Source: Candidatus Poribacteria bacterium (lineage in GTDB: Bacteria; Poribacteria; WGA-4E; PCPOR2b). Taken from it: a stretch of DNA of 64,000 nucleotides. Below, piece by piece: positions 8,904-31,148 of the stretch. The stretch's first letter is position 1; the number at the start of each line of letters is the position of its first letter. The notes beneath the pieces were generated by a model, which worked only from the letters and a program-made list of their open reading frames with translations, had not been told where the DNA came from and made no database searches. The stretch covers positions 1,632,001 to 1,696,000 of the forward strand of contig OZ242326.1 of NCBI GenBank assembly GCA_965208325.1. Direction: 5' to 3'. The position numbers and the translations under genes are program-made.

Positions 8904-8941
8904 TTAGAAGGGTGCCCTAGCAGATAGAGAAAGCGAGGAAC

Positions 8942-11060: not shown

Positions 11061-11230
11061 CGGCTCGAACATCCGCGTACTTCTATGCCGATTGCCCTTT
11101 GGTGTCTGGTCGTAAGCGCAAACGGTACGCTTTTCCTGAACACACATATCTAGGCAAAATTTCTGGCATTATTCAGAATTCCCGCGCATTTAAGCAGTGG
11201 ATTCAGAAAACACGGTCTGAGGTACAATCC

Positions 11231-12664: not shown

Positions 12665-12755
12665 GCACAATGTGTGTCGAAAACCGCTGACCAAGAACAC
12701 CCAAATTTGACGAGAATTACGGTGCAGTTTGCTTGGAATTCAAGATTGGCGGCGT

Positions 12756-13870: not shown

Positions 13871-14788
13871 ATGAGGTTTACTGGACACGAAACCTTCCCT
13901 TGTCGATATACTTGGCTCCCTAAGGCAGTTGCCGCTTTAAACAAAAATCGCCATTTGTTTAGGGATATAGACGAAGCGATAGTTGCGCTGGGCGTTGGCA
14001 AGCAAATGGCTCAAGCGATAAGATTTTGGGTTGAAGCTGCAAAGGTTGTCGAAAGAAAAGAAAAAGGGGATTTCAAAGTCACTTGGTTGGGTGAAAAATT
14101 GTTGGGCGAAGGCGGATATGATTCATATCTGGAGAACATCCAAACGCTTTGGCTCATTCATTGGAATTTTTCGACTCACCCTGACAACCCCATTTTCGCT
14201 TGGGATTTTCTTATGAATCAGTGGCAAGAACCCGAGATTGCTCCATCGATCGTAGTGAAGGCTTTCGAAAATAAGGCGAATGCTCAAGACCGAAAACTGT
14301 CTCCGGCCACACTCAAACAGCACTTCAAAATTTTTCTTCATACTTACGTACCAACGCGGGGAAAAAAAGGGGACATACTCGAAGATAACCTCGATTGCCC
14401 TTTGACTGAACTGAATTTGATTCAACGGATTGGAGATAGGGTTTTAGACGGGGAAGATGGAAAGCGGGAACCGGTCTACACCTTCAACCGTGACCCCAAA
14501 CCGAAAATAAGCCAGAAGCTATTTGCCTTTTGCTTAAACGACTTTTGGGAAACTTATCACCCCACAGATCAGACATTGTCATTCCGTGAAGTCGCGTCTG
14601 GACATGGCAGCCCAGGTCAAATCTTCAAGTTGCCAGAACGAGAAATTCGGGGCCGTCTAGGAGCGATTGAAGATTTTACGGACGGCGCGATAGTCTTTCA
14701 TGAATCGGTAAACTTGAGGCAGATTCAAAAACAGGAAGACATTGACAGGGAAGATTTATTGGATGCTATTTATTTGCAAAGGGATTAG
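13871..14788 (+). CDS. sspB: DUF4007 family protein (SspB-like)
   Basis: N-terminal F(T/S)GHETF.R..WL.K, LGVGK.M..AIRFW, D.YLE...TLWL.H, LDCPL.EL.LI signatures of DUF4007; first gene of the cluster. Confidence 0.85.
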   Translation: MRFTGHETFPCRYTWLPKAVAALNKNRHLFRDIDEAIVALGVGKQMAQAIRFWVEAAKVVERKEKGDFKVTWLGEKLLGEGGYDSYLENIQTLWLIHWNFSTHPDNPIFAWDFLMNQWQEPEIAPSIVVKAFENKANAQDRKLSPATLKQHFKIFLHTYVPTRGKKGDILEDNLDCPLTELNLIQRIGDRVLDGEDGKREPVYTFNRDPKPKISQKLFAFCLNDFWETYHPTDQTLSFREVASGHGSPGQIFKLPEREIRGRLGAIEDFTDGAIVFHESVNLRQIQKQEDIDREDLLDAIYLQRD

Positions 14789-14791
14789 CAC

Positions 14792-17700
14792 GTGGACAAA
14801 ACCATAGCCCGCTTATTTCATATTAACCCCCGCTTCTTGCGTTCGACCCACCTTGAACGAGATTTTCCCGCCCCGGACGGTTGTACAGGATACATACCGA
14901 CGGATTTTTCCGTGTCCTGCCTTGAGCGTTTGGCTGAGGGGCTCATAGCAAATTCTACTCGGCGAGCATGGCGGTTAACCGGGGATTATGGCACCGGAAA
15001 ATCAAGTTTCGCTTTGTTCCTCGCTCACCTGTTTTCAGGTCATCAGAATGGGCAACTTGAAAAGTTACGACAGTCTATTAACATAGAGGCGTTCTGCTTT
15101 GACAACCTGAATCTGATACCCATTCTGGTCACCGGAAGCCAATTGCCCTTGGGGACTGCTCTCCAGTCGGCATTGCGGGAATCCATTGCCACCACCGGCA
15201 CCAATGGTTCTAATGTGACACTTCCGCCTCGACTTCAAAACCTTGTGAAGAATTTAGATGGGGGTACACCGTCACATGTTGAACCCCGCTCGGATCGAAA
15301 CGAAATCCCGGGCATCAGGGACCAAGAGATTGTCGAAGGTCTGAGCCAGTTTGGTGAATTCATCAAATCGGAGTCTAAAGGATCGGGTGTTCTTCTTATC
15401 CTTGATGAGTTGGGTAAATTCCTTGAATTTGCGGCAATGTATCCTGAACGTCAGGACATTTATCTACTTCAGCAATTGGCAGAAGCGGCCTCACGCAGCG
15501 GTGACACACCGTTGTTCGTCTTAGGTCTATTACATCAAGGGTTCAGTGCCTATGCCGACCATCTGGATGGGACATCTAAGCAGGAGTGGGAAAAGGTGGC
15601 GGGGAGGTTTGAAGAGATTCTTTTCAATCAACCGCTCGATCAGGCAGTCCCGCTGCTGTCATCTGCTTTGGGGATTCAAATGTCAGACGTTCCCGAACAG
15701 TACCAAATACAGGCAAGAACTCAAATGGAATGTGCCCTTGAGCAGGGATGGTATGGTCCTGTACCACTACGCAAAGAATTGCGGAATAAAGCGGTGCAGT
15801 TATTTCCGCTGGATCCGTTAGCTGTACCTATTATCGTGCGTACCATGCACCGCTTTGGACAGAATGACAGGTCGCTGTTTAGTTTTCTTCAATCCTCGGA
15901 GCCATTCGGCCTACAAGCCTATGCTTCACAACATTCCCTTGAAAATGCACTTCCTTACCGAATCGCCGACTTCTACGATTATGTCCGGGCGAATCTGAGC
16001 CATTCGCTCAATCTGAGCAGCACACAGACCCATTGGAGTGTGGTTGATTCCATCGTTTCTAGTCACATATCCAGCGACCGTTTGGAAATGGAGGTGCTGA
16101 AAACGGTTGGGATGTTGAATCTACTGAACGCCAATGACTTACTTCCAATAGAGTCGATTGTCTTACAAGCGGTGGCGGGAATTCAGGAAGACTTGCGTAG
16201 AGGTGTCAGCCATGCAATAGACGCGCTGAAACATGAGAAACGCCTACTATACGACCGAGGCATTGCCGGAGGTTTATGTCTTTGGCCCCATACCAGTGTG
16301 GACTTGGATGCCGCGTACAAAAAGGCAGGGCGTGCAGTCGGGAGTATTCAGCGGGTCAGTGAGCTAATTAAAACCCATCTTGATCCGAGACCGATCGTTG
16401 CTCGCCGACACTACATACAAACCGGGAATTTGCGTCATTTTAAAATTCAGTATCTGTCGGAACCCGAATTTGCCGAATCCGTGCTTGAGTTTGCTGACGG
16501 TGTAGATGGAAAGATAATTATCGTGCTATGTGATTCACGTCAAGAACAGCGGCAGGCGGTACAGGTCGCTGAATCCATTAACCATCCACAAGTAATTATC
16601 GCCATCCCTGCCCCATTGCGAAGCGTTGCCGGCTATCTGAAGGACTTTCTGCGTTGGGAATGGGTCGGGAAAAACACGTTGGAACTCAATACCGATCCTT
16701 ACGCGAGTGAGGAGGTCGCACGTCAGCGGGATGCGGTCCGTATCCGTCTTGAAAAGCGAGTCGGCGACTTAAACGATCTGCGCGGATATTCAGGAGAAAT
16801 GAGGTTCAAGTGGTTTTCTGAAGGGAAACAGCTGTCGTTTTCTACAGGTCAACAACTCTTGAATCACCTTTCAGATCTTTGCGACAGGATTTTCGCCAAA
16901 GCCCCCACCATTCAAAACGAACTCATCAATAGACAAAACTTGAGCTCTGCGGCAGCCGGTGCACTGGGGCGTTTGATTGGAGCAATGTTTGAAAAGGAAT
17001 CTCAGGAGAACTTGGGAATGCAAGGACACAAACGACTACCTGAGATGTCATTGTACCTTTCGATTTTGCAGCCGGGAAATATCCATGTTGAAGGAAAAAA
17101 AACGTGGTATATTGAAAAGCCCCCTCCCGAGGCAGACCCGTGTCATATCCTACCGACACTGGGACAAATCGATGCACTGTTGAAGTCCAAGATTGATAAG
17201 AAGATTCCGATTCAAGAGTTATTTGCAGAACTTCGAAAACCGCCGTTTGGAATTCGAGACGGACTAATTCCTTTACTGCTAGCAATCTATATTGTCGCTC
17301 ACCGACAGGACATTGCGATTTTTGAAGACGGCACATTCTTGCGTGAGGTAAGGGGAGATGATTTCCTTCGCCTGACAAAAGCCCCCGAGTATTTTGAAAT
17401 TCAACATAGTGAAATCCAAGGGATTCGTGCCTCAGTTTTCGATCAACTCATCAAGGTACTTGGCATTCAGCGAACATCAGGAGAGCGGGATTCGCGAATC
17501 CTTGATGTTGTTCAACCCTTGTGTACCTTTGTTGTGGAACTGCCTGAATATGTCCATAACACGAAGAAACTCTCTCAAGAAGCCATTGCTGTCCGCAATT
17601 CGCTCATGTCGGCAGGCGAACCTGCCCCACTAATTTTCCGGGACTTGCCAATCGCCTGCGGTGATGCTCCGTTTGATGCAACCGAATCCATCGACGACAG

Positions 17701-18325
17701 TCGGGTGCAGGACTTTGCGGAAAGACTCAAAACCTATCTGGCTGAACTGCGGAACTCCTACACCGAGTTACTTGAACGTCTAAAATCTGCTATTTTTGAG
17801 GCATTTGAGGTGTCAGGTAGTTTTTCACAAGCACGCGGTTTGCTGTCAAGCCACGCCCAGGATTTACGAATTCATGTCAGCGAATCTCAACTCAAAGCTT
17901 TGTGTGGTCGCCTGAGTGACAGGACCTTGTCTGAAACGAAGTGGATTGAATCGGCTGCGAGTTTCGTTGCTTCAAAACCGCCATCCTATTGGGACGATGC
18001 CGACGAAGGCGTGTTCCAACATAAACTTTCAGACCTCGCAGAGCGCTTTAAGCATGTTGACAGTTTGTATTTCGGGACGGTAGATAGACCCGATGGGGGA
18101 GAAGGAGTTCGCCTCGCAATCACGTGTTCAGATGGCAATGAAAGAGCTGCGGTCATGTATCTCCGACCTGAAGAAGAAGACACATTGGAAAATATCCAAA
18201 AGCAGATTCGCACTATATTGAGAAGTCACAATCGTTTGGGATTAGTAGCTGTCGCTCGGGCGGTTTGGGAGGAAATCAAAGAAGGTACTGTCAGTTCAGA
18301 CCAACAAGGAGGCCAATTCAAGTAG
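14792..18325 (+). CDS. sspC: Large P-loop ATPase (SspC-like)
   Basis: Walker A GDYGTGKS, Walker B LILDELGKFLE, EWEKVAGRF, FGQNDRSLFSFL; lies between DUF4007 and PAPS reductase genes. Confidence 0.8.
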   Translation: MDKTIARLFHINPRFLRSTHLERDFPAPDGCTGYIPTDFSVSCLERLAEGLIANSTRRAWRLTGDYGTGKSSFALFLAHLFSGHQNGQLEKLRQSINIEAFCFDNLNLIPILVTGSQLPLGTALQSALRESIATTGTNGSNVTLPPRLQNLVKNLDGGTPSHVEPRSDRNEIPGIRDQEIVEGLSQFGEFIKSESKGSGVLLILDELGKFLEFAAMYPERQDIYLLQQLAEAASRSGDTPLFVLGLLHQGFSAYADHLDGTSKQEWEKVAGRFEEILFNQPLDQAVPLLSSALGIQMSDVPEQYQIQARTQMECALEQGWYGPVPLRKELRNKAVQLFPLDPLAVPIIVRTMHRFGQNDRSLFSFLQSSEPFGLQAYASQHSLENALPYRIADFYDYVRANLSHSLNLSSTQTHWSVVDSIVSSHISSDRLEMEVLKTVGMLNLLNANDLLPIESIVLQAVAGIQEDLRRGVSHAIDALKHEKRLLYDRGIAGGLCLWPHTSVDLDAAYKKAGRAVGSIQRVSELIKTHLDPRPIVARRHYIQTGNLRHFKIQYLSEPEFAESVLEFADGVDGKIIIVLCDSRQEQRQAVQVAESINHPQVIIAIPAPLRSVAGYLKDFLRWEWVGKNTLELNTDPYASEEVARQRDAVRIRLEKRVGDLNDLRGYSGEMRFKWFSEGKQLSFSTGQQLLNHLSDLCDRIFAKAPTIQNELINRQNLSSAAAGALGRLIGAMFEKESQENLGMQGHKRLPEMSLYLSILQPGNIHVEGKKTWYIEKPPPEADPCHILPTLGQIDALLKSKIDKKIPIQELFAELRKPPFGIRDGLIPLLLAIYIVAHRQDIAIFEDGTFLREVRGDDFLRLTKAPEYFEIQHSEIQGIRASVFDQLIKVLGIQRTSGERDSRILDVVQPLCTFVVELPEYVHNTKKLSQEAIAVRNSLMSAGEPAPLIFRDLPIACGDAPFDATESIDDSRVQDFAERLKTYLAELRNSYTELLERLKSAIFEAFEVSGSFSQARGLLSSHAQDLRIHVSESQLKALCGRLSDRTLSETKWIESAASFVASKPPSYWDDADEGVFQHKLSDLAERFKHVDSLYFGTVDRPDGGEGVRLAITCSDGNERAAVMYLRPEEEDTLENIQKQIRTILRSHNRLGLVAVARAVWEEIKEGTVSSDQQGGQFK

Positions 18326-18338
18326 TAGGGTGGAAACG

Positions 18339-19148
18339 ATGAATCGGAAAGATCGCCACATCCTCAGCCTTTCAGGTGGAAAGGATAGTACGGCATTAGC
18401 CATCTACATGCGTGACCGCGTTTCAGAAATGGAATACATCTTCCACGACACTGACAAGGAATTGCCGGACACCATCGAATATCTCAAGCGTTTGGAAGCA
18501 TATCTAGGTGTGCCCATTGAGCGAACCACCAAACACACCGGTTTTGACAAAATGCTGAGAGTGTATGGTGGCATGCTCCCTTCAAATCATCGACGCTGGT
18601 GTACCAGAATGCTGAAGCTCAAGCCGTTTGAGGCGTACGTCGGTGATGACCCTGTGGTTAACTACGTAGGTCTTCGAGCGGACGAAAATCGAACCGGATA
18701 TATCAGCCACAAACCCAACATCAAAGTGGTCTATCCATTCAAAGAGGATGGAATCGTTTATGAGGATGTGGTTCGCATCCTAGAAGAGTCCGGGCTAGGA
18801 ATGCCACCGTACACTAGTTGGGGGCGAACACATTCAGGCTGCTTTTTCTGCTTCTATCAACAAAAGATTGAGTGGGTTAGGTTAAAACAGAGGTATCCCG
18901 AACTGTACGAACAGGCAAAGGAATACGAAAAACCCAACAAGATTAACGGGAATATTTTTTATTGGAATGATGACGAATCTCTTGAAGAACTTGAACAACC
19001 GGAGCGAACTGCGGAGATTATTGCCAACTGGGAAAAGAATCAAGATCGTCTGAAAGCCAAGCGAAAAAATAAACCGTTAGTGTCGGTTTTAGCTGGATAT
19101 GAGTCTGAAGATGATGAAGATCAGGGCTGTTTGACGTGCTTTTTATAG
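18339..19148 (+). CDS. sspD: PAPS-reductase family ATP pyrophosphatase (SspD/DndC-like)
   Basis: PP-loop LSGGKDS, DTDKELP, RRWCT..LK, GCFFCFYQ, C-terminal CxxC; alternative GTG start at 18330. Confidence 0.88.
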   Translation: MNRKDRHILSLSGGKDSTALAIYMRDRVSEMEYIFHDTDKELPDTIEYLKRLEAYLGVPIERTTKHTGFDKMLRVYGGMLPSNHRRWCTRMLKLKPFEAYVGDDPVVNYVGLRADENRTGYISHKPNIKVVYPFKEDGIVYEDVVRILEESGLGMPPYTSWGRTHSGCFFCFYQQKIEWVRLKQRYPELYEQAKEYEKPNKINGNIFYWNDDESLEELEQPERTAEIIANWEKNQDRLKAKRKNKPLVSVLAGYESEDDEDQGCLTCFL

Positions 19149-19336
19149 TGCAATTAACCCACCCGCCACATTTACCTTCAATTTCAAATTAGCTTGATGC
19201 AAACTCAATGAAAGGTCGGTTTTCGGGTATTCATTTCGCTAACTGGCACATGTATTGGTATGTGATTGAATAGAATTGGTTGAAGATGAAACCAGTGCAA
19301 AATTGCATATGTATGTTTATATGAGAGAATGGACGA

Positions 19337-21232
19337 ATGAATTACAATCAAGGTTTCCCGTTAGTTGAACTAGCTACCGCCTACCAGTCACTCCGTGATT
19401 CGGGTTTTGATTTTTCCACTGCCATCGGCGAGTTAATTGACAATTCTGTCCAAGCAAATGCACAGAGGATTGACGTTATTCCAAGAATTGTGCAGAAAGA
19501 AATTGATGGCGAACCAGGAGTGATTCCGGTCATCACCCAGATTGCTGTTGTCGATGATGGTGACGGGATGGATGAGAGAACCCTCAATGGATGTTTACAG
19601 TTAGGTTTTTCTACACGCTATAACGACAGGAAAGGCTTGGGGCGTTTCGGTGTAGGTGCAACTTCCGCTAGTATTTCTCAGTGCAAGCGCACGACTTTCT
19701 GCTCTCGCCCCAAAGGCACAAGTGATTTTCTCGCGACCTACATTGATTTGGACGAAATAGCAGACCATACCCAGACAGTCATCCCGAAACCAAGTCCGAT
19801 TCATTTGCCAAGGGATTTAAAGGACATCAGTTTTGACGATTCGAATACTATTGTAGTATGGAGTCAATGCGATCGTTTACAGCATGATGCAAATGGACGA
19901 CCTACCCAAGCAAACATACTCTTATCGGATCTGCAGAAGTGGGTATCAAGGGCATATAGGTACATCACATGGAACGGGGTGAAAATATTCATAAACGGTG
20001 AGACAGTATTGGCGCATGACCCGTTATATTTGAACGCCAGTCAAACTAGATTTCCAGATGATCCACTTGCCACAGAAGTGTATTCAGAATCCTTTGAATG
20101 GGAAGTGCCTAGGGAGCCAGAAAAAACTTCATCTATATCCGTGAAACTGTCCCTATTGCCGGAAGTGTGGCGTCAGGAACAAGGCGCTGGCGGTAGCGAA
20201 CTTGCTCGCGAACGCAGGATACCTGATAATCAAGGTATTTCAATTCTACGGAATCGTCGTGAGATTGAATATGGAAATCTTTACCCTATGGTTCCGAGTC
20301 AAGCGCACATTGATCGATGGTGGGGCCTCGAAATTAACTTTGAGCCAGTATTAGACGAGTGTTGGAAAGTAAGGAATATAAAACGGGGTGTAACTCCGAT
20401 TGAAGAATTGAGGAACAGACTCAAAAAATTACTAACTCCAAAAATCCATAAACTTCGCAAAGAAATACAGAGTTATTGGAAAACACGTATCTCAACAACT
20501 GTTGTTCATAGGATACGCGAGATAGCGTCCATGTTAATGCAAAATAGCAACATCGTGACCGTTCCTAAAGTTAAGGCTTATCTAGAAGAAACCGCGATAT
20601 CCACAGACGACATGTCGTTGGTAATAGAAGAATTAGCGTTTGAGCAAGCATGGGATTGGCGATCGAACGGTACACACAGAGAATATACACACTCCCATCC
20701 TGAGCTAACTGAATCAGAAAGAGAAATATGTTTTGAACACATCCGAAGTGCAATCGAAAATAGCGATATTGATACACAATTCAAAGATGTCGCTTTGTAT
20801 GATCTTGAACAAGCAAGAGTTTGCTATAAGTCAAAAGCGTTCAAAGCCTGCATTGTTATGTTCGGCGCAGTAATCGAAGGTTTAATGTTGGGCACGATTA
20901 GGAATGATAATACTACTCTTACTAATATCATTAAGGATCCGCACGGGGCTCCCAACATTTTCAAACCTCTTAAATTGAACCAACTTTCTAAACCGGAGGA
21001 ACTGGCGGACAGAATAAGCGAGAAAATGAAATTTGAGGATTATAAGAACATGATTTCGGTTTTCAAACCGGAAATCGAAAAACCGAAGATTGAGGAGATT
21101 CAGGGCTTTCGAAACGCTATTCATCCGTGGAAGTCTATCAAAGAACCTTACATCTTTCGAGATCCTTCTCAAATCAGAGCCCTGAACTATTTGTCATCTC
21201 TATCACTTCTGGCTAACGAAATTTTAACTTAA
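19337..21232 (+). CDS. MORC/GHKL (HATPase_c_3-like) ATPase fused to a HEPN-like C-terminal domain
   Basis: ELIDNS, DDGDGM and GRFGVG Bergerat motifs; C-terminal ACIVMFGAVIEG...FRNAIHP. Confidence 0.8.
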   Translation: MNYNQGFPLVELATAYQSLRDSGFDFSTAIGELIDNSVQANAQRIDVIPRIVQKEIDGEPGVIPVITQIAVVDDGDGMDERTLNGCLQLGFSTRYNDRKGLGRFGVGATSASISQCKRTTFCSRPKGTSDFLATYIDLDEIADHTQTVIPKPSPIHLPRDLKDISFDDSNTIVVWSQCDRLQHDANGRPTQANILLSDLQKWVSRAYRYITWNGVKIFINGETVLAHDPLYLNASQTRFPDDPLATEVYSESFEWEVPREPEKTSSISVKLSLLPEVWRQEQGAGGSELARERRIPDNQGISILRNRREIEYGNLYPMVPSQAHIDRWWGLEINFEPVLDECWKVRNIKRGVTPIEELRNRLKKLLTPKIHKLRKEIQSYWKTRISTTVVHRIREIASMLMQNSNIVTVPKVKAYLEETAISTDDMSLVIEELAFEQAWDWRSNGTHREYTHSHPELTESEREICFEHIRSAIENSDIDTQFKDVALYDLEQARVCYKSKAFKACIVMFGAVIEGLMLGTIRNDNTTLTNIIKDPHGAPNIFKPLKLNQLSKPEELADRISEKMKFEDYKNMISVFKPEIEKPKIEEIQGFRNAIHPWKSIKEPYIFRDPSQIRALNYLSSLSLLANEILT

Positions 21233-21249
21233 ACCGCATATCGTTTATT

Positions 21250-23127
21250 ATGTCTATGAAAGCTGCTGAAGATTGGATTCGTTTTCTGAGAAAATATGGA
21301 CCCATTGCTCAAAATGGCAACATGTTTGATGAGGAGATTTGGCGGACGGCAAAACGGACTGGGATCGAACCAATCACGTTTGAGCATCCATTAGCCAAAC
21401 AACTTTTCCGGTGCTTTGATTACTCCTGCAATGAATGGAAATCAGTTATTCTAACGGGAACAGCGGGTGATGGCAAAACCCATCTATGCCGTCAAGTATG
21501 GGAAAAAATTGGCGGAAGCGACGAGGAATGGCAATCAGATGAACCTTTTGTTATGACGACGGTCCAGCATCCGAACAGAGGCGAAGTCCGGCTTAATGTA
21601 ATACGAGATCTCAGCGCGTGGGTTCCACAACAGGGAATGGATTGGCCTCGAGAAAAGGCAGAACTGTTGTTGAAATTTAGTAAGTTACTCTCTGAGATTG
21701 AACCTAGGGATTTCTTTCTGATTGCAGCGAACGACGGTCAGCTTATTGAAACCTGGCGGCGATTGGAAGAGCACACGAAAAACGAAGATGTTGCAAATGC
21801 ACATAGGGAGTTTCACGATTTACTTTTTAAAGGAGAAGTAGAGGGAATTGGTCTAAGATTTTTCAACTTAAGCCAGATGAAATCTTCAGACTTATTTCAA
21901 CTGGCTTTAAAAGAGCTTTTATCACACGAACGTTGGCAGGAGTGTTTTGAGGGCGAAGCCGCACAGACAATTACTTTCGGTCCACAATCACCTATCCGGC
22001 GAAATTACGAGCTACTACGCGAACCATTGATACAGTCTCGCCTTAGCACACTATTTGAATTTTGCGACTACAATGAATTTCATGTGCCAATTCGGGAAAT
22101 TTTACTGCTTTTGGCAAACGCGATTCTTGGTCATCCCGAATGTCGGGAAAGATTGATGATTCCCAAGGATGTCGAAAGAATTCTCAACAACGGAACATTG
22201 GCAAAAGCCAGTTTATACAGCAACATCTTCGGCGGCAATCTATCTGCTACTCGTCAAGAGTCTATTCCTGTCTTCCGTTACCTGAACTTGCTGCGTATCG
22301 GCTATGAAACGACCAACAGAATTGATAATATCCTAATTTTCGGCGACACAGATGAACGGCTGCGCCTCTATTTCCAGGAATTGGTTGATAACGATGCGTT
22401 TTACGGTGCGGACAAATCTTACGAGGAAGCACGAAATGCCTACATTGAGGGGTCGGAGGAAGACGACGAGAGAAGTGTAAAATTTTTGGAATCGTTGGTC
22501 GCGCAACGCCGTGCTTTGTTCTTTAAAATCCCAACTGAATGGGAAGATGAACTAAAGCTATGGGATTTGACGGTATTCAAACACGCTGGCGCCTATCGGA
22601 CTAAGGTATTCCTAGCTTTGAAAGAAGGTAAGGAGATTGAAAGGCAAATCATCCGGCGTTTAGTCAAGGGACTCAACCGCATCTGGGTGGGTATGTTGGT
22701 TGATAGGGATCAAGATGTCTATCTGGCAACCGGACTTGCATTCTCTAACGCACGGGTGAGTCGCATTCTTGAGGAGCATATTTCGGTCGCGCCCCGATTG
22801 GGACAGAAGGTTGAGATTATCTTGAGAAACAGTGATGAGATGCCAATGATTCAGGTCGTGTTGGCCCCAACAATTGAACGATCTTTTGCGCTGACTTTGA
22901 CCCGTTTCGAGTTTCTCAACAGGGTTGCCGACGGTGCGCTCCCCAACAGTTTCTCCAAAGAATGTTACGAAGATGTCATGACTTTCAAGAGTCGGGTATT
23001 GGCGGCGCTTGCGGAGCGCCGTATCCGGGATGAAGAAGCACAATATTCAGAACTAACCCTTCGTCTTTTAGGTGTTGACGAACACGGAAATCCCACCGAG
23101 GAAATCGTGGAGTTGCCAAATGTCTGA
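21250..23127 (+). CDS. P-loop NTPase, SspF/DptF-like restriction component
   Basis: ILTGTAGDGKT Walker A, IAANDGQL, IREILLL; first of three coupled genes ending in an FtsK-like ATPase. Confidence 0.7.
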   Translation: MSMKAAEDWIRFLRKYGPIAQNGNMFDEEIWRTAKRTGIEPITFEHPLAKQLFRCFDYSCNEWKSVILTGTAGDGKTHLCRQVWEKIGGSDEEWQSDEPFVMTTVQHPNRGEVRLNVIRDLSAWVPQQGMDWPREKAELLLKFSKLLSEIEPRDFFLIAANDGQLIETWRRLEEHTKNEDVANAHREFHDLLFKGEVEGIGLRFFNLSQMKSSDLFQLALKELLSHERWQECFEGEAAQTITFGPQSPIRRNYELLREPLIQSRLSTLFEFCDYNEFHVPIREILLLLANAILGHPECRERLMIPKDVERILNNGTLAKASLYSNIFGGNLSATRQESIPVFRYLNLLRIGYETTNRIDNILIFGDTDERLRLYFQELVDNDAFYGADKSYEEARNAYIEGSEEDDERSVKFLESLVAQRRALFFKIPTEWEDELKLWDLTVFKHAGAYRTKVFLALKEGKEIERQIIRRLVKGLNRIWVGMLVDRDQDVYLATGLAFSNARVSRILEEHISVAPRLGQKVEIILRNSDEMPMIQVVLAPTIERSFALTLTRFEFLNRVADGALPNSFSKECYEDVMTFKSRVLAALAERRIRDEEAQYSELTLRLLGVDEHGNPTEEIVELPNV

Positions 23128-24700
23128 GTATCTGAAGGCGGGAAATATCGTATCGAATATGCATTGTCGAAGTGACCATCCGAGCATCTCCCCTTGGTTG
23201 GACGAACAGATTTGGGGACACCGCATTTTGGACGACCAGAGTCCTTGGCTACTTTTTCTGGAATTCTTAACGGTTGCCGAAGCCTGTCATCGTGAACATA
23301 GACTATTTGACGAATGCGGGGTGGCGTTTCCATTACAATTTAGACCTTATCAACGACTTTACTTGAGAAACATCCTTTTCAAAAATGGGTTTGTTGATGG
23401 TGTTGACGCGACACACAGCGATGGCGGCGTTTGGGAGGAGTGGATTCAACGAATGAACACCGAAGCGGATGGGGTCACAACACGTACTTTTTCGTATCTC
23501 AAAGACAAGTTTTCATCATTTCACGATTTCGTGACCATCGTCGGAACACTTAGTGACACCGCGATTGAAGGTGACAGGAATAGGAGATGGTCGTCGCGTT
23601 TTGTATTTCCTTTCGGGCGGCACGGTCTGTACGAAGACCTTAATGTAAGAGGTAGCAGTGTTTCTCGCGAATACATCTACTTCGGGCGGACCGGTGAACT
23701 CCTCTACCTGATGCTCTGTCGCTCAAAGTTTGCAGAAGATCTGCGCGAGCCTATAAAACTGTTGTTTGACGAGGATAACTACCTCAATAAATTGCTCCAA
23801 CGCCTACAACCTGATGAAGATGACGACCTGCATCGTAGAGGACAGAGCTATCTTCCTTATATAAAGCATCACTGCTTTGATTTGCTTGGTGAGGATTGGA
23901 AGAACATCTTCGACCTGAATCTACCGGGATTTGATTCCTACCAGTTTTTGGTAGAACTCAGCGCATTACATGTGATGCTGTACCAGCTTAACACGGCCAC
24001 GTGGTTCATACCGGAGTGCCGGAAGGTTCACTTCATTTGCGAGGTGATTGCCCCTCAAAAAACACTCATCCGAGAATTGTCGATTGCCAGCTACCAAGAA
24101 AACAGCGTGTTGACGACGAAGGCCGTTGATACATACATCTCCCGTATTTCGGAGTCCAAGGATTGGTTGGCGATTACTGAAGGTTCTACAGGGGAAGATG
24201 CGTTTATTAAATGCTGGGAGATTCTTCAAGATGTATTCTGGTGGCCGCCTACCCAATCTAACGCTTCCAATAGGTACGATGGGCCATCAAACCCATCCGA
24301 ACTTCTCAAACAACTCAGAGAGATTGCTCGAAAAGGACATCTGCAACACGCAGGCAAAGTTCACCGCTCTTATGGAGGCGCGGTCGGATTGATCTCTCGG
24401 CGCGGCACAAATCGACTTCGCTATGCTCCAAACGACACCTTCCTCAAAACCATGGTGGTCGCCAATGTTCGAGAACGTAAGGAATTTAACCAATTCTTAA
24501 GCGATCTCTACAGGCGGTATGGGCTAGTTTTTGGAGAGAAAGAAGCCTCGGATGCTCTTCCAACTAAAGCATTTGACCAGAAAGTCTTTCAAGCAAATAC
24601 CGAGCGTTTGGAACGACGACTTTCCAGCATGGGCATGTTGCGCCGCCTTTCCGACTCCTGCGCTTACGTCATAAATCCATTTGGGAAGGAACAAAAATGA
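23120..24700 (+). CDS. SspG/DptG-like protein
   Basis: Overlaps both neighbours; C-terminal L..LY.RYG..FG and L.SMG.L.RLSD.CAYV.NP pattern reminiscent of DptG-like proteins. Confidence 0.6.
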   Translation: MSEYLKAGNIVSNMHCRSDHPSISPWLDEQIWGHRILDDQSPWLLFLEFLTVAEACHREHRLFDECGVAFPLQFRPYQRLYLRNILFKNGFVDGVDATHSDGGVWEEWIQRMNTEADGVTTRTFSYLKDKFSSFHDFVTIVGTLSDTAIEGDRNRRWSSRFVFPFGRHGLYEDLNVRGSSVSREYIYFGRTGELLYLMLCRSKFAEDLREPIKLLFDEDNYLNKLLQRLQPDEDDDLHRRGQSYLPYIKHHCFDLLGEDWKNIFDLNLPGFDSYQFLVELSALHVMLYQLNTATWFIPECRKVHFICEVIAPQKTLIRELSIASYQENSVLTTKAVDTYISRISESKDWLAITEGSTGEDAFIKCWEILQDVFWWPPTQSNASNRYDGPSNPSELLKQLREIARKGHLQHAGKVHRSYGGAVGLISRRGTNRLRYAPNDTFLKTMVVANVRERKEFNQFLSDLYRRYGLVFGEKEASDALPTKAFDQKVFQANTERLERRLSSMGMLRRLSDSCAYVINPFGKEQK

Positions 24701-27700
24701 CGACTGACCAACTGATTGGACAAGTTGGCGCAAGATATCTGCGAGTAAAACTTGATGAAGCTGACGACTCCGACGATACTGCTCGATACCTCATAGATCG
24801 GCTCTCGAAGGGACAGACCGCAGCCATTGCACGGGCGATATTGGCCGATGCAGTGCTTAGCGAAAAGGTTGAGATTAAGTTGCCAACTCGTTTCATGCAG
24901 GGGCAGAAGCTACCCGATTTGGTTCTGACCGAAGAAAGGGCAACATACTATCGTAATGCTCGATGCAGCAAGGCAGCTCTCTTACTCGCTACGACGGGTG
25001 ATGACGAAGCGCAATCGCTCAATCACCTCACCCCGATTGGTATTGCCCAGCTGATGGATAACCCCAATTTTTGGGTTGATGTTGCCTCAACAGATGCAAA
25101 TCTTTCGGAGAGTAATCAAAAATGGTGGGAGAAGGCGCTCAATGCGCTATTCCAGTTAAACATCTGCTCGCTAGCGCAGATTGCCCAGTACATTCTGCAA
25201 ACCCGCAACGCTATTGTCGATGATGGACACCCTGTTGTACATGCGCTTGACGCGGCACTACCGGCACTTCAAATTCCCAGAGGCACGGGGGATTTCAATG
25301 GAATTAGGGACAATTATCGAGGTCATACCGCCCAATGGCGGAGACGTTTCGAGTCTGCTCATCGCAAATATGCTTGTTACCTTCGCAAATATACCCCAAA
25401 CCAGACGCTCCTGAATGAGGATGAACTCACGGCGGCTTTCGCCGCGGCAAAGGATGCCATCCCCGAAAATTACCATTCTCTGATTGTGGCGTTCATCGGA
25501 GCCCCAACCGGGTGGAATTACCACGCCCAGGAATTGGCTGGATGTGAATGGAGCGTCGTTGGTCAACCGTTGTTTGAACGGCTGAAGCCAGAAAAGAAGA
25601 GTATTGGGGAACTGACTTTTGCATTCTATGATGAGCGTGAACCGGAACTTCTCACTGAATCCGAGCGGGATTATTTGCAGCGACTCAAGCGGCGCGGGAG
25701 ACTTCCAAAAAATGATGATGAAGAGGATAAAGAGTTTTACGAAGACCATCGAAATGAACTCAAGGAAGACCGCAAACTTAAGTCGTTATGGGACCGGTTT
25801 ATTTTCAAAACCCCGCTGGAGTCAGACGATTTCTTGGTTGGGCTAATACAATGCATCGAAAGACTTCTTGGCGCAAAATCGACCAGCGGGGAAACGCGAA
25901 TGACAATTCGTTGTGACCGTCGATCGAGAAAAGATCTCAGAGACCTCAACGTCGAGGCAGGGCTTTATTTTGCCACGCGCTATCGTGGATTGCCAACGTT
26001 GTTCGGACCGAAAGTAACTTGGGCACCGGAGTTCGATCAACTCTTTTCTTTTTCAGAATTGGTAGAAACTTGGCGTGGTGAAAGTGGTTCAAGACTGTGT
26101 GTTTCAACGGCGAAAGCATCGCGACAGATTAAATTCACGATCGAACTTAGTGCCCCAGATGATACTGCAAAGCACGCAACCCAACTTATTTGGGACTTTA
26201 ACCTTAATAGCATCACCACCCAATTTCACAGCGATTTTAATCGTCTTGTGGAACACCCGCTAGTCTTTTGTCATACAACGCGCGAGCCTATCAGTACCAA
26301 AGGCGAATTCCAACCCCTTGACCTTTCCAACGTGAAGTCATTTGGCCCGGCCTATGGAAAGGAGCGTGGTTCTTTTGTCTCCGTCTACACAGAGGACAAC
26401 GATGTCGCTGAAACATGGCTTGAAAATTTGAAAGAAGCAAAACACCAACACCTTCGGACCGACGACGATGCACAACAGATTCGGTCGAGATTTGAAGTCT
26501 TTCGCGCATCCTATGCCGCGGCAATTGCCGGATTCATGAAGCGTGGAGTGGCTTGCGCCGAACTGCTAGATCAGTTATCCGATTACGCGGAACTTTTGGA
26601 GACATTATGCCGCAACGCCAAAGGGGACCGTAATCGGGAGTTGCTCTTAAACCCACTTTTGAAAATCGGCGCTGTTACGGTGGATGGCGGACAGCTTGCA
26701 ACAGTTGTTACTCCGTGGAATCCGCTTCGCTTGGCCGCCATGGCAGTAAAGGCAAAACAAGTAGCAGAACTTCTTCAACGTTTGCTTACCGCTGAAGACC
26801 TAGCTTTTGGCAATGCAGAGCGATTCTATTTCCGCGAAATTGAAGAAGCCTTGGCGCATCCCTATTACCCTGAAGTTGTTATAGGTTGGGATCGCGGTGA
26901 ACCCAAACTGTTGTCACTGACCGATTTTGTGGGAGATTACAGTCTACACGAACACCCGGTTGTGACCGACGAGGCTAGCGATGGCACAAATGACAACCCT
27001 GAAGGAGCTTCCAACCTTGTAACTGATCAAATTGACCGTTATTTGCAACTTCAACCCCATGCTCAGACTAACCTCTCTGTCGTCCTGTACAACTGCGATT
27101 CTGTTCGCCTTCCGCAAGCGGTTGTCGAGAAAATTCTTAAGAAGTACGAAGAAAACGAAGATGTTCTTTGCCAGATTGTGCTTCGGCATCGGAATAAGAA
27201 ACGTCTGCGTGGACTCTATGAGCAGATTATCCAAAGTAGTGGTGAAGAAGTTGATGCCTTCAGTGCCAGCGAAGCAACCAAGGATTTCATGGCTCGTCTG
27301 CGCATCAATATCATCGCTGATCAGGTGTCGCAACCAGATAAACGGGATGGCTGCCCTATGGACATCGTGTTTTCCCAAGATGTCATCGCTCGTCATGCCG
27401 GAATCGAGTGGTACAGTGAAGATGCTCGACCTGTCGAACTTCTCAAGGTCTTCCCTTCTCGCTGGTCGCGCCGCCGTCCCGCGTTCAAAGACGATATGAA
27501 GTCTGTTGTTTATCTCTGCTGTCCCGTTCAAAGCCGTGAAGTCTGGACGTATTTGACAACAATGGCAACTATACTAAAGAGTGATTGGGACGAAAACGAA
27601 ACAAGGCGACTATTGCCCGCCAGACAATTAGATTTTCAAAAACAAGAAATGACCAGTATTTTTGAGGAGACACACAATCTTGGAAACTGGGTAATTAACT

Positions 27701-30009
27701 ACGATGAAATTCTTGATCGCCGCCAAGTGGAGAATCAAAATGCTCGTGTCATTCGATACAAGCAGTCCGCCACGCAGGGACGGAATACAATCATTTCATC
27801 AAAGGCGAATCTCGAATTTCTCGAAAACATGCTTGTACGTCGTTTAAAGGCACTCGCACTTGATTTGGACGAAGCCGCATACCAACGACTTGCAGGGGAG
27901 TTTTGTGACGATGCCAACAGGATTTCCGGCGACATAGTGCTCCGTGCCGCCAGACGCGGACGAAACGCCAGTGAGCTCATCGGAGTAGTTTTGAGCCGAT
28001 TCCTTATCCGGCATGAGCTGAATGATAATGACTACTTTGGCTGGTATTTTCTTGACGATTATGCGGAATGGTTGGGGTTACGAGAAGGACGAATTGCAGA
28101 TATATTGGCAATGAGTCCATCTCAGTCACAAAACGGTAAATTGAGACTAGACATCGTTGTTTCTGAAGCGAAATACATCAGTGCTAGCAATCTGTTAAGA
28201 AAAAAGGAAGAATCCCAAAAGCAACTCCGCGACACTCTTAACCGAATTGCTGACGCACTCTTCGGTCAACCGGAACGTTTGGATAAGCCAATTTGGTTGT
28301 CTCGGTTGTCCGACTTGGTTGTTGAAGGGCTCCAATTGCCGGCGAGCGCGAATATTAATCTTTCCCATTGGCGCTACTCCATGAGAGAAGGTAAATGTGA
28401 AATTTTCCTGCGCGGTTATTCACATGTTTTTGTTTCAGACTCTCCAAGCGTGGAGTGTTCAGATCTGATTTCGGTAGCAAATTGTGATGACGCATACCAG
28501 GAAGTTTTTTCACATGCAAAGGTCCGAGAGCTTGTCCTGTTATACATGAAGGATGGCGACCCGATTTCGATCAGGCGAGATAACCTAGCAGAGGAAATTT
28601 GGACAATCAAAAACTATCGTGAACCATTAGATGGCACGCGAACTGTTGTAAGCTCTGCCGAATTTCGTAACATTCAATCTGAAGCGGAACGCGAAGAAAT
28701 GGAAGTTGAAGTTCAATCTGCTGCGGAATCGGTTCATCTGAACGATGAATCGAATCCAGCGGGCAAGGACGAATGTCAAAATCAAAACAGTAACAATCTG
28801 CATGCCGTCATTTCTGAAATCTGGTCATATAAGGGAGTCACTAAGTTTTTAGCCAGATATCATGGAAGCGAAGTTGAATCCCAATATGGCGAACAGTGGT
28901 TAGATCAAACGGCGCGACAATGCAGAGCCGCGCTTCAACAGTTTCAGCTTCAAGCCAAACTGCTTAACAGCATTCTCACTCCGAACGCCGCATTGCTGAA
29001 GTTCCAAGGAAGCGCGGATCTGACCGTGGAACAGGTGTCAAGGCGACGCAGTGAGTTCTTGACAACTTATGGACTCAATCTAATTTCAGTACGACCTGAA
29101 CCGGGGAAAGTAGCAATCTCAGTTGCCCGTCCAGAACGCCGGATCTTGTACCTGCCACAAATCTGGCGAAACTGGGCTAAGTACGCACCCAACCACGATG
29201 AGGGAGTCCGCAACGGAGGCAACCAAAAACTCCTAATCGGTCTGAAGGAAGAAGACAGTAGTCCACTTTTTTTATCACCCAGAGAGAATGCCCCGCACAC
29301 GTTGATTGCAGGTTCGACCGGTAGCGGCAAGTCTGTTCTGATGCAAAACATTATCCTTGGCATCGCCGCCACCAATACGCCGGAGCAAGCCCACATCGTT
29401 CTAATAGATCCGAAGATGGGCGTGGATTATTTTGCGTTTGAGGATTTACCTCACTTGCAAGGAGGTGTGATTGACGACCAAGAAGCGGCCGTTGAACATC
29501 TGAACCAGCTGATATCAGAAATGAATCGTCGATACAAAGTGCTTCGGCAGAACCGGGTGAGCGACATTTTCGACCTTAATGCTAAGCCAAGTGCGACGGA
29601 ACATTTGCCGGTCCTTTGGATCATCCACGATGAATTTGCGGAGTGGATGATGACTGAAGAATACAAGAATACAGTTACTAATGTTGTGTCGCGTCTAGGT
29701 GTAAAGGCAAGGGCGGCAGGAATCTTCCTCGTCTTCGCAGCCCAGCGCCCAGACAATCACGTTATGCCAATGCAGCTACGAGCAAACTTAGGCAACCGAT
29801 TAATCCTTCAGGTCGATGGCGAAGGTACATCCGAAATTGCCCTAGGTGAACCCGGAGCTGAACGTCTGTTGGGCAAAGGACATTTGGCAGCAAAATTGGT
29901 GGGGGAATCTACCGTTATTACGGCTCAAGTGCCATTCGTGAACACCGAGGACTTGGAAGAGATTGTCAGACGGATTCAACTGGAAGAGATGCAAGAGACC
30001 ACGCCATGA
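24697..30009 (+). CDS. Large FtsK/SpoIIIE-domain ATPase (SspH/DptH-like) with a putative PD-(D/E)xK motif
   Basis: HTLIAGSTGSGKS, LIDPK, IHDEFAEW, KARAAGIFLVFAAQRP, LRANL, GAERLLGKG; central IADILA...SEAKY. Confidence 0.8.
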   Translation: MTTDQLIGQVGARYLRVKLDEADDSDDTARYLIDRLSKGQTAAIARAILADAVLSEKVEIKLPTRFMQGQKLPDLVLTEERATYYRNARCSKAALLLATTGDDEAQSLNHLTPIGIAQLMDNPNFWVDVASTDANLSESNQKWWEKALNALFQLNICSLAQIAQYILQTRNAIVDDGHPVVHALDAALPALQIPRGTGDFNGIRDNYRGHTAQWRRRFESAHRKYACYLRKYTPNQTLLNEDELTAAFAAAKDAIPENYHSLIVAFIGAPTGWNYHAQELAGCEWSVVGQPLFERLKPEKKSIGELTFAFYDEREPELLTESERDYLQRLKRRGRLPKNDDEEDKEFYEDHRNELKEDRKLKSLWDRFIFKTPLESDDFLVGLIQCIERLLGAKSTSGETRMTIRCDRRSRKDLRDLNVEAGLYFATRYRGLPTLFGPKVTWAPEFDQLFSFSELVETWRGESGSRLCVSTAKASRQIKFTIELSAPDDTAKHATQLIWDFNLNSITTQFHSDFNRLVEHPLVFCHTTREPISTKGEFQPLDLSNVKSFGPAYGKERGSFVSVYTEDNDVAETWLENLKEAKHQHLRTDDDAQQIRSRFEVFRASYAAAIAGFMKRGVACAELLDQLSDYAELLETLCRNAKGDRNRELLLNPLLKIGAVTVDGGQLATVVTPWNPLRLAAMAVKAKQVAELLQRLLTAEDLAFGNAERFYFREIEEALAHPYYPEVVIGWDRGEPKLLSLTDFVGDYSLHEHPVVTDEASDGTNDNPEGASNLVTDQIDRYLQLQPHAQTNLSVVLYNCDSVRLPQAVVEKILKKYEENEDVLCQIVLRHRNKKRLRGLYEQIIQSSGEEVDAFSASEATKDFMARLRINIIADQVSQPDKRDGCPMDIVFSQDVIARHAGIEWYSEDARPVELLKVFPSRWSRRRPAFKDDMKSVVYLCCPVQSREVWTYLTTMATILKSDWDENETRRLLPARQLDFQKQEMTSIFEETHNLGNWVINYDEILDRRQVENQNARVIRYKQSATQGRNTIISSKANLEFLENMLVRRLKALALDLDEAAYQRLAGEFCDDANRISGDIVLRAARRGRNASELIGVVLSRFLIRHELNDNDYFGWYFLDDYAEWLGLREGRIADILAMSPSQSQNGKLRLDIVVSEAKYISASNLLRKKEESQKQLRDTLNRIADALFGQPERLDKPIWLSRLSDLVVEGLQLPASANINLSHWRYSMREGKCEIFLRGYSHVFVSDSPSVECSDLISVANCDDAYQEVFSHAKVRELVLLYMKDGDPISIRRDNLAEEIWTIKNYREPLDGTRTVVSSAEFRNIQSEAEREEMEVEVQSAAESVHLNDESNPAGKDECQNQNSNNLHAVISEIWSYKGVTKFLARYHGSEVESQYGEQWLDQTARQCRAALQQFQLQAKLLNSILTPNAALLKFQGSADLTVEQVSRRRSEFLTTYGLNLISVRPEPGKVAISVARPERRILYLPQIWRNWAKYAPNHDEGVRNGGNQKLLIGLKEEDSSPLFLSPRENAPHTLIAGSTGSGKSVLMQNIILGIAATNTPEQAHIVLIDPKMGVDYFAFEDLPHLQGGVIDDQEAAVEHLNQLISEMNRRYKVLRQNRVSDIFDLNAKPSATEHLPVLWIIHDEFAEWMMTEEYKNTVTNVVSRLGVKARAAGIFLVFAAQRPDNHVMPMQLRANLGNRLILQVDGEGTSEIALGEPGAERLLGKGHLAAKLVGESTVITAQVPFVNTEDLEEIVRRIQLEEMQETTP

Positions 30010-31148
30010 AAGCAGTCTACGCAGACAATAACGCCACAACTCCCGTTGCACCAGAAGTGATGGAAACAATGAAATTATACTTTGCGGATGCGTTTTACAA
30101 TCCGAGTGCAATCAGTGGACGGGCGTATGGCATTGATACGGCCATAGCTCAAGCCAGGCGGGCCGTGGCGGAATTTCTAGGCACATCAGACGCGAATGAA
30201 ATTGTCTTCACTTCCTGCGCGACCGAGAGCAACAACTGGGCAATTTTCGGAGCAACTCGGGGGAATCCTGAACGCCGGCACATTATCACATCGAAAGTAG
30301 AACACCCCTCCGTTTTGGAAACTTGCAAGTCAATAAATAAGAATGGGTATGATGTCACGTATCTCAAGGTAGATGGTGACGGCAACCTGAACATGAATGA
30401 ACTAATTGATGCCATCCGTAGCGATACGCTTTTGGTTTCGCTAATGGCGGCGAACAATGAGACAGGAGTAACATTCCCAGTTGACCGATTATCGGCTGCC
30501 GTGAAAGAGCAAGATCCGAACATAATCTTTCACACGGATGCTACCCAATATATTGGAAAGTTACCTGTTGACCTTAGCCGTGAGTTTGAACATATAGATT
30601 TATTGTCCTTTTCCGGTCATAAATTTCATGGGCCGAAAGGGATAGGTGGGCTTTTTATTCGTAAAGGCACTCCACTGGCGCCACTACTTTATGGCGGAAA
30701 TCAAGAAAATGGCCGCCGGAGCGGTACTGAAAATGTGCCAGGAATTATTGGCATGGCTGAAGCGTGCAAGCTAGCTGACCGTAACATCACGCGTGTGAAG
30801 AATGTGGAGACTCTACGTGATGAATTAGAGGGCGAACTGCTTGGCCTGGCCCCCACGGCTTTAGTAAATGGAGGAAATGCAAACCGCTTGCCCAATACAC
30901 TCAATATTGCATTCAAAGACATGGACAGTGAAACGCTTCTCCATCAACTGTCGATGGGCGGTGTATATGCTTCAAACGGTTCGGCGTGCTCCACAGGTTC
31001 GCTGGACTACTCTCACGTTCTATCGGCGATGCAAGTGCCGTATGATTACATTGCCAGCAGCGTACGATTTAGTTTTAGTCATCTAAATAGTTCAGAGGAT
31101 GTGAATATAATCGTGGAGAGGATGAAACAGATTCGAGGGTTGGGCTAG
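30006..31148 (+). CDS. sspA: Cysteine desulfurase (IscS/NifS family; SspA/DndA role)
   Basis: DNNATT, ATESNN, EHPSV, HTDATQ, SGHKFHGPKG (PLP lysine), GSACST (catalytic Cys); ATGA overlap with the upstream gene. Confidence 0.93.
   Translation: MKAVYADNNATTPVAPEVMETMKLYFADAFYNPSAISGRAYGIDTAIAQARRAVAEFLGTSDANEIVFTSCATESNNWAIFGATRGNPERRHIITSKVEHPSVLETCKSINKNGYDVTYLKVDGDGNLNMNELIDAIRSDTLLVSLMAANNETGVTFPVDRLSAAVKEQDPNIIFHTDATQYIGKLPVDLSREFEHIDLLSFSGHKFHGPKGIGGLFIRKGTPLAPLLYGGNQENGRRSGTENVPGIIGMAEACKLADRNITRVKNVETLRDELEGELLGLAPTALVNGGNANRLPNTLNIAFKDMDSETLLHQLSMGGVYASNGSACSTGSLDYSHVLSAMQVPYDYIASSVRFSFSHLNSSEDVNIIVERMKQIRGLG

Follow-up and report, generated by a model that had tools for sequence, protein, structure and literature searches.

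What does a gene for a MORC-type ATPase with a HEPN-fold tail do inside a DNA phosphorothioation island? The island occupies positions 13871-31148 of a 64,000-nucleotide stretch of a Candidatus Poribacteria genome (hereafter the window; contig OZ242326.1, positions 1,632,001 to 1,696,000 of the forward strand) and consists of eight stop-free open reading frames (ORFs), all on the + strand. An earlier note had described eight co-oriented genes at these positions, which the ORF coordinates and domain calls bear out. As the best explanation, we propose that an intact SspABCD-SspFGH phosphorothioate (PT) system is combined here with an optional MORC-HEPN-fold backup that may shut down the infected cell by cutting RNA, a reading to which we attach moderate confidence. 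The core is ordinary; the accessory gene is conserved and optional, follows a known architectural theme, and stands in a context that we found in no paper.

Seven of the eight genes find their best PADLOC matches in SspB, SspC, SspD, SspF, SspG, SspH and DndA/SspA. The first, sspB (13871..14788, +), encodes a 305-aa DUF4007 protein (SspB PDLC02766, E 3.4e-105; Pfam DUF4007, E 1.6e-70); the SspB profile aligns from residue 1 of the frame that starts at ATG 13871, and a longer GTG ORF is also present. It is followed by sspC (14792..18325, +), encoding a P-loop ATPase of 1177 aa with an intact Walker A motif (GDYGTGKS at residue 64), and by sspD (18330..19148, +), whose 272-aa product belongs to the PAPS-reductase family (Pfam PAPS_reduct, E 4.5e-14) and has an intact SGGKDS loop and five cysteines. 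Behind the accessory gene lie sspF (21250..23127, +; intact Walker A GTAGDGKT at residue 70) and sspG (23120..24700, +; 526 aa, PADLOC SspG E 3.3e-180). The earlier note had called them a small NTPase and an unknown protein; the former, at 625 aa, is not small, and both can now be named. Next, sspH (24697..30009, +) encodes a 1770-aa protein that matches the SspH profile with 2139.3 bits over residues 1-1761 and carries a C-terminal FtsK/HerA ATPase with intact Walker A (Pfam FtsK, E 4.8e-36; FtsK_SpoIIIE at residues 1521-1685); a PD-(D/E)XK-like pattern, D1135...E1157-A-K1159, was spotted in it by eye only. The distal sspA (30006..31148, +) encodes a NifS/IscS-type cysteine desulfurase of 380 aa with intact SGHK (K206) and SACS (C328) motifs (Pfam Aminotran_5, E 1.4e-72). 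The distal position had been noted before and is normal for this cluster lineage. A second desulfurase homologue is encoded elsewhere in the genome (C1:1868276-1869403).

By these profile matches, which are full-length for SspF, SspG and SspH, the core is very probably the published SspABCD-SspFGH system, as the earlier note had proposed. That note had named a better score against another system, such as BREX type 4 or Dnd, as one outcome that would speak against it; by the PADLOC profiles both fit worse, and we regard such an identity as highly improbable. It could draw on a match of the SspC protein to BrxC with 446.4 bits, and on the desulfurase, which scores marginally better as DndA (429.7 bits) than as SspA (424.1 bits), a near tie. 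The same SspC protein, however, reaches 1237.9 bits with the SspC profile. SspD matches its own profile at E 5.2e-114 (379 bits) versus 2.5e-08 (31 bits) for BrxP and 1e-3 for DndC, and SspF at E 2.3e-203 versus 1.9e-4 for DndF. BREX type 4 is defined by brxPCZL (PMC12914056). Here, sspB and sspD are separate genes, the eight proteins include no match to BrxZ or BrxL, and the only PglZ match of the genome lies 1.46 Mb away (C1:180832). The genome, a single contig (C1) that is 95.6% complete, also yields no match to DndD (TIGR03185). SspE (DUF262+DUF1524), which the earlier note had reported missing, is indeed matched by none of the eight proteins, nor does its profile PDLC02792 find anything in this genome.

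In the published system, SspA mobilises sulfur and SspABCD writes single-strand PT, in the context 5'-CpsCA in the strains studied, while SspFGH damages DNA that lacks PT, and is toxic where PT is missing (Wang et al. 2021, PMC8092258). The combination sspBCD-sspFGH was reported in 196 of 2,678 sspBCD strains, most sspBCD loci having no known effector (PMC8092258). The island resembles SspABCD-SspFGH of Vibrio anguillarum FF-93, as described in that paper, in placing sspBCD beside sspFGH without SspE, in the Walker A motif of SspF and in the C-terminal FtsK domain of SspH. In contrast to FF-93, which uses iscS (PMC8092258), it has its own distal desulfurase gene; it also has the extra MORC-HEPN-fold gene between its two modules, and its genome holds a second, resident sspBCD set.

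The accessory gene (19337..21232, +) lies outside the canonical set, as the earlier note had recognised. It encodes a 631-aa protein with a GHKL+S5 ATPase (residues ~1-382), a helical linker and a HEPN-fold domain (residues ~455-631), as judged from HATPase_c_3 (Pfam, E 7e-21), structure matches and conservation. In gene order, the intergenic gaps of the island are 3, 4, 188, 17, -8, -4 and -4 nt, and the only real upstream gap (188 nt) is the one before the MORC gene. All eight genes lie below the genome's G+C content of 0.494, with values of 0.425-0.486 and the minimum (0.425) in the MORC gene. Contigs from sequencing run X1 match positions 18924-30296 with zero differences, and a 5,755-nt contig from another study (X6) spans 18920-24674 with 109 differences. 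This contig bridges sspD, the MORC gene, sspF and sspG, so their order is real and not an assembly artefact. A promoter and terminator scan gave 23 and 13 sites, against 22.7 and 17.9 expected by chance, and is thus uninformative.

Does the N-terminal half deserve the name MORC? Its GHKL motifs are intact, with ExxDNS at E32, DxGxGM at D73 and GxxGxG at G102. A first protein search returned 745 matches among 8,000 scored candidates; of the 120 matches listed, some 65 span almost the whole protein, with identities of 56-88%, and full-length relatives were found in Candidatus Poribacteria genomes. Across 65 aligned full-length sequences, E32, D35, N36, D73, G75, G77, G102, G105, G107 and R308 are invariant. 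Compared by eye, G300-ISILRNR-R308-EI fits the MORC motif GhXhhpXXRhl, defined in the S5 domain by Iyer et al. 2008 (PMC2292703), except for E309. The best PDB sequence matches are human MORC2, and MORC2 and MORC4 rank first (E 5e-12) for the AlphaFold model of the full protein (pLDDT 77). The N-terminal half is thus a MORC ATPase by its GHKL motifs and its S5 MORC motif. In all 15 pairs drawn from six genes, dN/dS lay at 0.10-0.25 on the ATPase and at 0.11-0.31 on the tail, with dS often near saturation; both domains are under purifying selection.

Prokaryotic MORCs of restriction-modification (R-M) systems (Iyer et al. 2008, PMC2292703) share with it the GHKL+S5 module, the MORC motif and the setting in a defence locus, and the same holds for MzaB of the MZA system. 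Unlike these, the island gene has no superfamily 2 (SF2) helicase, methylase or Z1 neighbour, and its product carries its own effector tail. Membership in MZA was considered and rejected: the protein scores 66 bits with MzaB NF041932, against a cut-off of 850, and its neighbours have no other Mza match.

The C-terminal tail (residues 455-631) is modelled as a confident all-helical bundle (pLDDT 92.7). Among 48,161 chains, its best VIA structure match is the HEPN protein 2hsb (Z 12.0, root-mean-square deviation 2.7, 115 of 126 residues aligned), followed by 1wol (10.1), sacsin HEPN (10.0), 1ufb (9.9), AbiA (8.9), SO_3166 (8.7) and RnlA (8.0). Most of the top rows are HEPN-fold chains; the list also includes 4nqf and, directly after 2hsb, Roquin, which has a HEPN domain. 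In all 33 aligned tail homologues, which have varied N-termini and come from 44 available, E514, Q589, R592, N593, H596, P597 and W598 are invariant (H596 is more cautiously rated near-invariant), and the acidic E514 is the conserved residue expected in HEPN helix 2. From the model and its matches, we assign the tail as a probable HEPN-fold domain, by fold and not by canonical motif. Of the MORC-HEPN fusion in the earlier note, the MORC part therefore stands, and the HEPN part holds by fold but not by the catalytic motif.

The tail is mobile. A profile search retrieved 207 representatives at E <= 0.001, and weaker matches include DUF4145 proteins. When 53 representatives were scanned, 10 carried GHKL, 4 tyrosine-recombinase, 1 STAND NTPase and 1 HEAT-repeat domains, 5 matched DUF4145, and 33 had no Pfam match, with one protein counted twice or more. 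A winged helix-turn-helix domain is also among the fusion partners. To judge from these sequences, the tail is a mobile, effector-like domain fused to varied partners. The proteins P0176, P0183, P0188 and P0206 join the same HEPN-fold tail to tyrosine-recombinase-like sequences. The ESM Atlas gave a best score of 0.90 in unnamed clusters, in one of which DUF4145 makes up 15%; we treat this as a lead only. A plasmid search with the tail found no match.

All 33 tails match the PADLOC profile 'REase_II' (PDLC03485). The Herpetosiphon GHKL protein P0203 matches this 611-position profile end to end (1324 bits), scores 402 bits with the BbrUII/HgiDII family (NF050001), under the cut-off of 550, and aligns to the tail with an hhalign probability of 99.9 and 31% identity over 173 columns, the motif being kept. 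R.HgiDII is also 611 aa long, and PDLC03485 presumably derives from it, a derivation we draw partly from this length. If so, the comparison suggests that the C-terminal domain of R.HgiDII, assigned to no fold in 2008 (Orlowski and Bujnicki, PMC2441816), may have a HEPN fold. The likeness to R.HgiDII-like proteins lies in the C-terminal domain behind a GHKL ATPase. The island's ATPase half is only distantly related to theirs: the window protein reaches 20 bits with NF050001, against the cut-off of 550, and only its tail matches PDLC03485. The two fusions thus look independent. The accessory gene may in this way offer a fold for a domain common to HgiDII-like proteins.

Where is the gene found? 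Of 176 genomes searched in the phylum, 5 have a full-length MORC-HEPN copy; they fall into three families and rank in the same order as that of the window. In the window's genome (G000) and in G062, the gene stands between sspD and sspF. In G107 it lies behind sspA of an sspBCD-DGQHR-sspE-sspA cluster, a layout repeated in L043, the sole full-length metagenome locus, and in G137 it follows sspE-sspA; the contig concerned is probably the continuation of the one with sspBCD. In G108 an intact copy follows a 149-nt 3' remnant of sspA, where G083 has a whole sspBCDE-A cluster. All five full-length phylum copies therefore sit at an island-type cluster or its remnant, and among the 176 genomes the MORC-HEPN gene was not seen away from this Ssp cluster type.

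The interval between sspD and sspF (19158..21255), which holds the MORC gene, is an exchangeable slot. G029 aligns to window positions 13881-19157 and 21256-31133 but not to the slot between them, where it carries three genes, one of them DGQHR/DndB-like and the other two of 139 and 104 aa. From sspF onward, G029 and G062 are 97% identical, whereas they differ wholly in the slot, which accepts SBD-HNH and other cargo besides the DGQHR cassette. Among 11 island-type genomes, four have the MORC gene, five are readable and lack it, and two end at contig edges. The gene is thus an optional, exchangeable passenger that also rides with SspE-type clusters. In G062, sspH is split into frames of 176 and 1613 aa (L031:15357-20682; putative) within an otherwise intact island.

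More distant MORC matches extend the picture. Nine of ten in 41 relatives abut sspD, although most of these belong to one genus and do not count as independent cases. Beyond the phylum, ssp, dnd or PAPS-reductase genes lie within 10 kb of the MORC gene at 8 of the 16 loci examined (L039, L040, L041, L047, L048 and three of four plasmid matches); the loci without PT genes are L035-L038, L044-L046 and one plasmid. A trio of SF2 helicase, MORC and PLD nuclease recurs at L048:5808-10130, L041:8334-12690, L102:9591-13914 and L039:9974-14344, either joined to sspBCD (L048, Pelagibacter, G005) or in the vicinity of dnd genes (Methanoregula), and is a candidate for a further PT restriction module.

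How might such a gene serve a PT system? By analogy, we think it fairly probable that it acts as a PrrC/RloC-like backup RNase. SspABCD would put sulfur into the backbone of the cell's own DNA, and SspFGH would damage unmarked phage DNA. GHKL ATPases dimerise on ATP, and the MORC module would likewise bind ATP, dimerise and clamp on DNA. The trigger would be the failure of this first line, through nicked, broken or foreign DNA or through lost contact with the Ssp machine. Two HEPN-fold domains could then be brought together to form a composite R-N-x-x-H site. We infer RNase activity for the tail; HEPN RNases need a dimer (bioRxiv 10.64898/2026.09.30.754977). Cleavage of RNA by the composite site may lead to dormancy, as with PrrC and RloC for methylation-based restriction. 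The accessory gene would in this case point to a PrrC/RloC-like fail-safe for PT defence. It is also a prokaryotic MORC that comes as a single gene, can be tested directly and supplies its own readout.

Related architectures are known. Fusions of paraMORC with the HEPN domain Ymh in R-M loci have been proposed as PrrC/RloC analogues (Anantharaman et al. 2013, PMC3710099). Like these, and like PrrC and RloC as treated there, the island protein joins an ATPase to a C-terminal HEPN-type domain in a defence locus that tells self from non-self DNA, with a proposed role as suicide backup. It differs from paraMORC-Ymh in its MORC-motif ATPase, in a tail of the Q-x2-R-N-x2-H family without a Pfam match to Ymh, and in a context of phosphorothioate instead of methylation. 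HEPN and PIN RNases, HEPN-DndF fusions and SBD-HNH nucleases have been described at Dnd loci (Rakesh et al. 2024, PMC10853773), and the likeness to these RNases lies in a proposed backup RNase beside a PT system. That survey covers Dnd, and its main text contains no mention of MORC, GHKL or SspF. A 2026 survey of BREX (PMC12839542) lists HEPN backups and has no mention of GHKL. GHKL-HEPN fusions beside methylation systems are thus known; a literature search that covered few subscription papers turned up no publication that places a MORC or MORC-HEPN gene in an Ssp locus, nor one on such a fusion in a PT-system context.

Several observations weigh against the backup-RNase reading, some of them concerning the tail. 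Catalytic HEPNs are defined by Rx4-6H with a polar residue after the arginine (PMC3710099), whereas R592-N593-x-x-H596 is Rx3H; we have therefore filed the tail as a HEPN-fold domain and not as a HEPN RNase of the proven type. Searches of Pfam, NCBIfam and PDB sequences place no HEPN family above the cut-off for the window's tail, the best Pfam score of such a family being DUF4145 at E 0.018. Foldseek returned nothing at E <= 0.001, its highest probabilities going to two HEPN-type chains (0.80 at E 1.0 and 0.75 at E 1.7), and a VIA Z under ~13 can be generic for a helical bundle, which includes the match reported above. The spacing of the motif also favours a different reading, in which the tail would either cut DNA or serve for dimerisation without catalysis. 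The protein would then work like the GHKL-containing type II restriction enzyme R.HgiDII or, in the manner of MutL, assist PT writing or SspFGH. The HgiDII link of the tail feeds into this reading as well, through the 'REase_II' matches and through P0203, a near-exact member of PDLC03485 with the common tail. We nevertheless consider it unlikely. The predicted all-helical HEPN-type bundle is unlike the listed restriction-nuclease folds, the nuclease part of R.HgiDII-like proteins was itself left open in the 2008 study (PMC2441816), the island has no methylase gene, and a gene missing from near-identical clusters can be no essential helper.

The remaining observations concern the tie to PT. The MORC gene is absent from five of the nine readable island-type clusters (G029, G083, G167, G171 and G172) and is therefore dispensable; G108 keeps it intact without a cluster, so it is tolerated without that partner; the five genomes that bear it are kin from one order and not independent; and four Nostoc relatives of the ATPase part have no PT gene in the flanks fetched. 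These points fit an abortive-infection gene that works by itself and has nothing to do with PT in function, and which would hitchhike in defence hotspots and be inherited with the clusters. The two different positions at clusters, the 188-nt spacer and lowest G+C content, and a slot that takes DGQHR, SBD-HNH and other cargo are in line with this. We grant such a hitchhiker a modest chance. It has to contend with the placement of all five full-length phylum copies, from three families, at an island-type cluster or remnant, and with the several other MORC subfamilies that adjoin sspD or lie close to PAPS-reductase/Dnd genes at half of the loci examined outside the phylum. A wider form of the backup-RNase proposal, which we hold to be rather doubtful, would make MORC ATPases a general and so far unrecognised guard module of PT systems that here fires a new Q-x2-R-N-x2-H family of HEPN-fold RNases; the long-unassigned C-terminal domain of R.HgiDII-like proteins would belong to it as well, which would turn these proteins into ATP-gated RNases. 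Here, MORC would clamp on DNA nicked by SspB, whose characterised homologues are nickases, or damaged by SspFGH or SspE, or would sense the loss of the PT machine. If true, this would provide a bacterial model for MORC clamps that read a DNA mark or lesion.

How did the island come to this place? Three congeners (G001-G003) have no match to SspF and keep the island's flanks, with a beta-propeller gene and a GNAT gene on the left and a NYN gene on the right. At the island site, they carry a single SBD-HNH gene (G001; NF045808, E 1e-111), ~24.7 kb of cargo (G002) and ~12 kb of cargo (G003). In G002, the terminal 108 nt of sspA are still present, which indicates that this genome formerly had the cluster. 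The site is thus a hotspot of gene turnover. In G001, the PT-cutting SBD-HNH gene (L051:6802-7707) lies at the exact island site, where PT writer and cutter thus alternate. The 3' end of the beta-propeller-repeat gene (11099-12664; the part at 12430-12667) is duplicated downstream in G002 (238 nt, L050:15188-15425) and in G001 (124 nt, L051:7889-8012), as after integration into a gene end; the window has no second copy of it. Repeat searches of the window detected no att-like flanking direct repeats of note around the island, in agreement with the earlier note, and no tRNA genes were found in the window. The right border is formed by a gene on the minus strand (31289-32848) for a coiled-coil protein with a C-terminal NYN domain, kept in 5 of 5 genomes. 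The GNAT gene (12729-13460), common to the congeners and outside the island, matches kasugamycin acetyltransferase AAC(2')-IIb below the cut-off (221 bits against 390).

Within the phylum, the effector module is rare and the PT genes are common. Strong SspF matches occur in 3 of 176 genomes (G000, G029 and G062), and two further matches are weak and partial, at loci that did not match the window's Ssp proteins. SspD is matched in 124 and SspC in 111 of the 176. These shares are far higher than the 3.0% that a survey of representative genomes gives for sspBCD (PMC12914056), and PT may be close to a core trait of the phylum. In one genus (g5), sspD and sspC are often separated. Two lineages can be told apart: SspC is 64-100% identical to the island's in 11 genomes and 25-36% identical in the others, and in a quick tree of 18 hand-picked SspC rows, a fully supported split lies between 9 'island-type' and 6 'resident' rows.

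The window's own genome carries both types, so that the island is not its sole Ssp locus. A resident sspBCD set lies at C1:1,593,448-1,601,642 (L089, L090), 44 kb from the island and 30-39 kb before the window start; its SspC and SspD are 31% and 55% identical to those of the island. The resident sspB has one extra base at C1:1,601,391 compared with all three congeners, which shifts the frame. Contigs from one sample (X1 and X2) bridge this site without a gap relative to the assembly, although a gap does appear there in a single X2 contig of low depth that carries 19 differences. The dominant strain thus probably has the frameshift. Because the resident sspB is frameshifted, the island would supply the cell's working PT system. 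The genome shows the arrival of one Ssp lineage next to a resident one in decay. G062 has no match to a resident-type sspC. G029, however, has both sspC types and apparently the whole resident set, which weighs against the island as PT supplier. The ~1.1 kb between resident sspB and sspC is packed with short repeats that recur throughout the genome (336 blast pieces).

Behind the resident sspD (L089:7542-13401 = C1:1587541-1593400) lie genes for a PT-dependent SBD-HNH endonuclease (NF045808, 306 bits, cut-off 180), a Cas4-like nuclease, a long Argonaute (PADLOC pAgo class II, E 1.4e-43) and two unknown proteins. An SBD-HNH gene also follows closely behind the resident sspD in G001, G015, G023, G059, G062 and G102. 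The SBD-HNH enzymes characterised so far have a preference for GpsAAC/GpsTTC, and PT that stands in other contexts can be treated as self (PMC7461809). By this preference, it is plausible that a host of the CpsCA type cuts DNA with Dnd-type PT.

A few observations lie apart from these systems. GGCC (0.38) and GATC (0.47) are strongly under-represented genome-wide relative to Markov expectation, and we draw no tie to the island. At 41572-43187, the window contains a tandem internal repeat with a period of ~125-129 nt and ~70% identity, likely a repeat-protein gene. Two tandem paralogues at 7884-9949 are ~70% identical in DNA; from their sequence, we take them to be aldo-keto-reductase-like.

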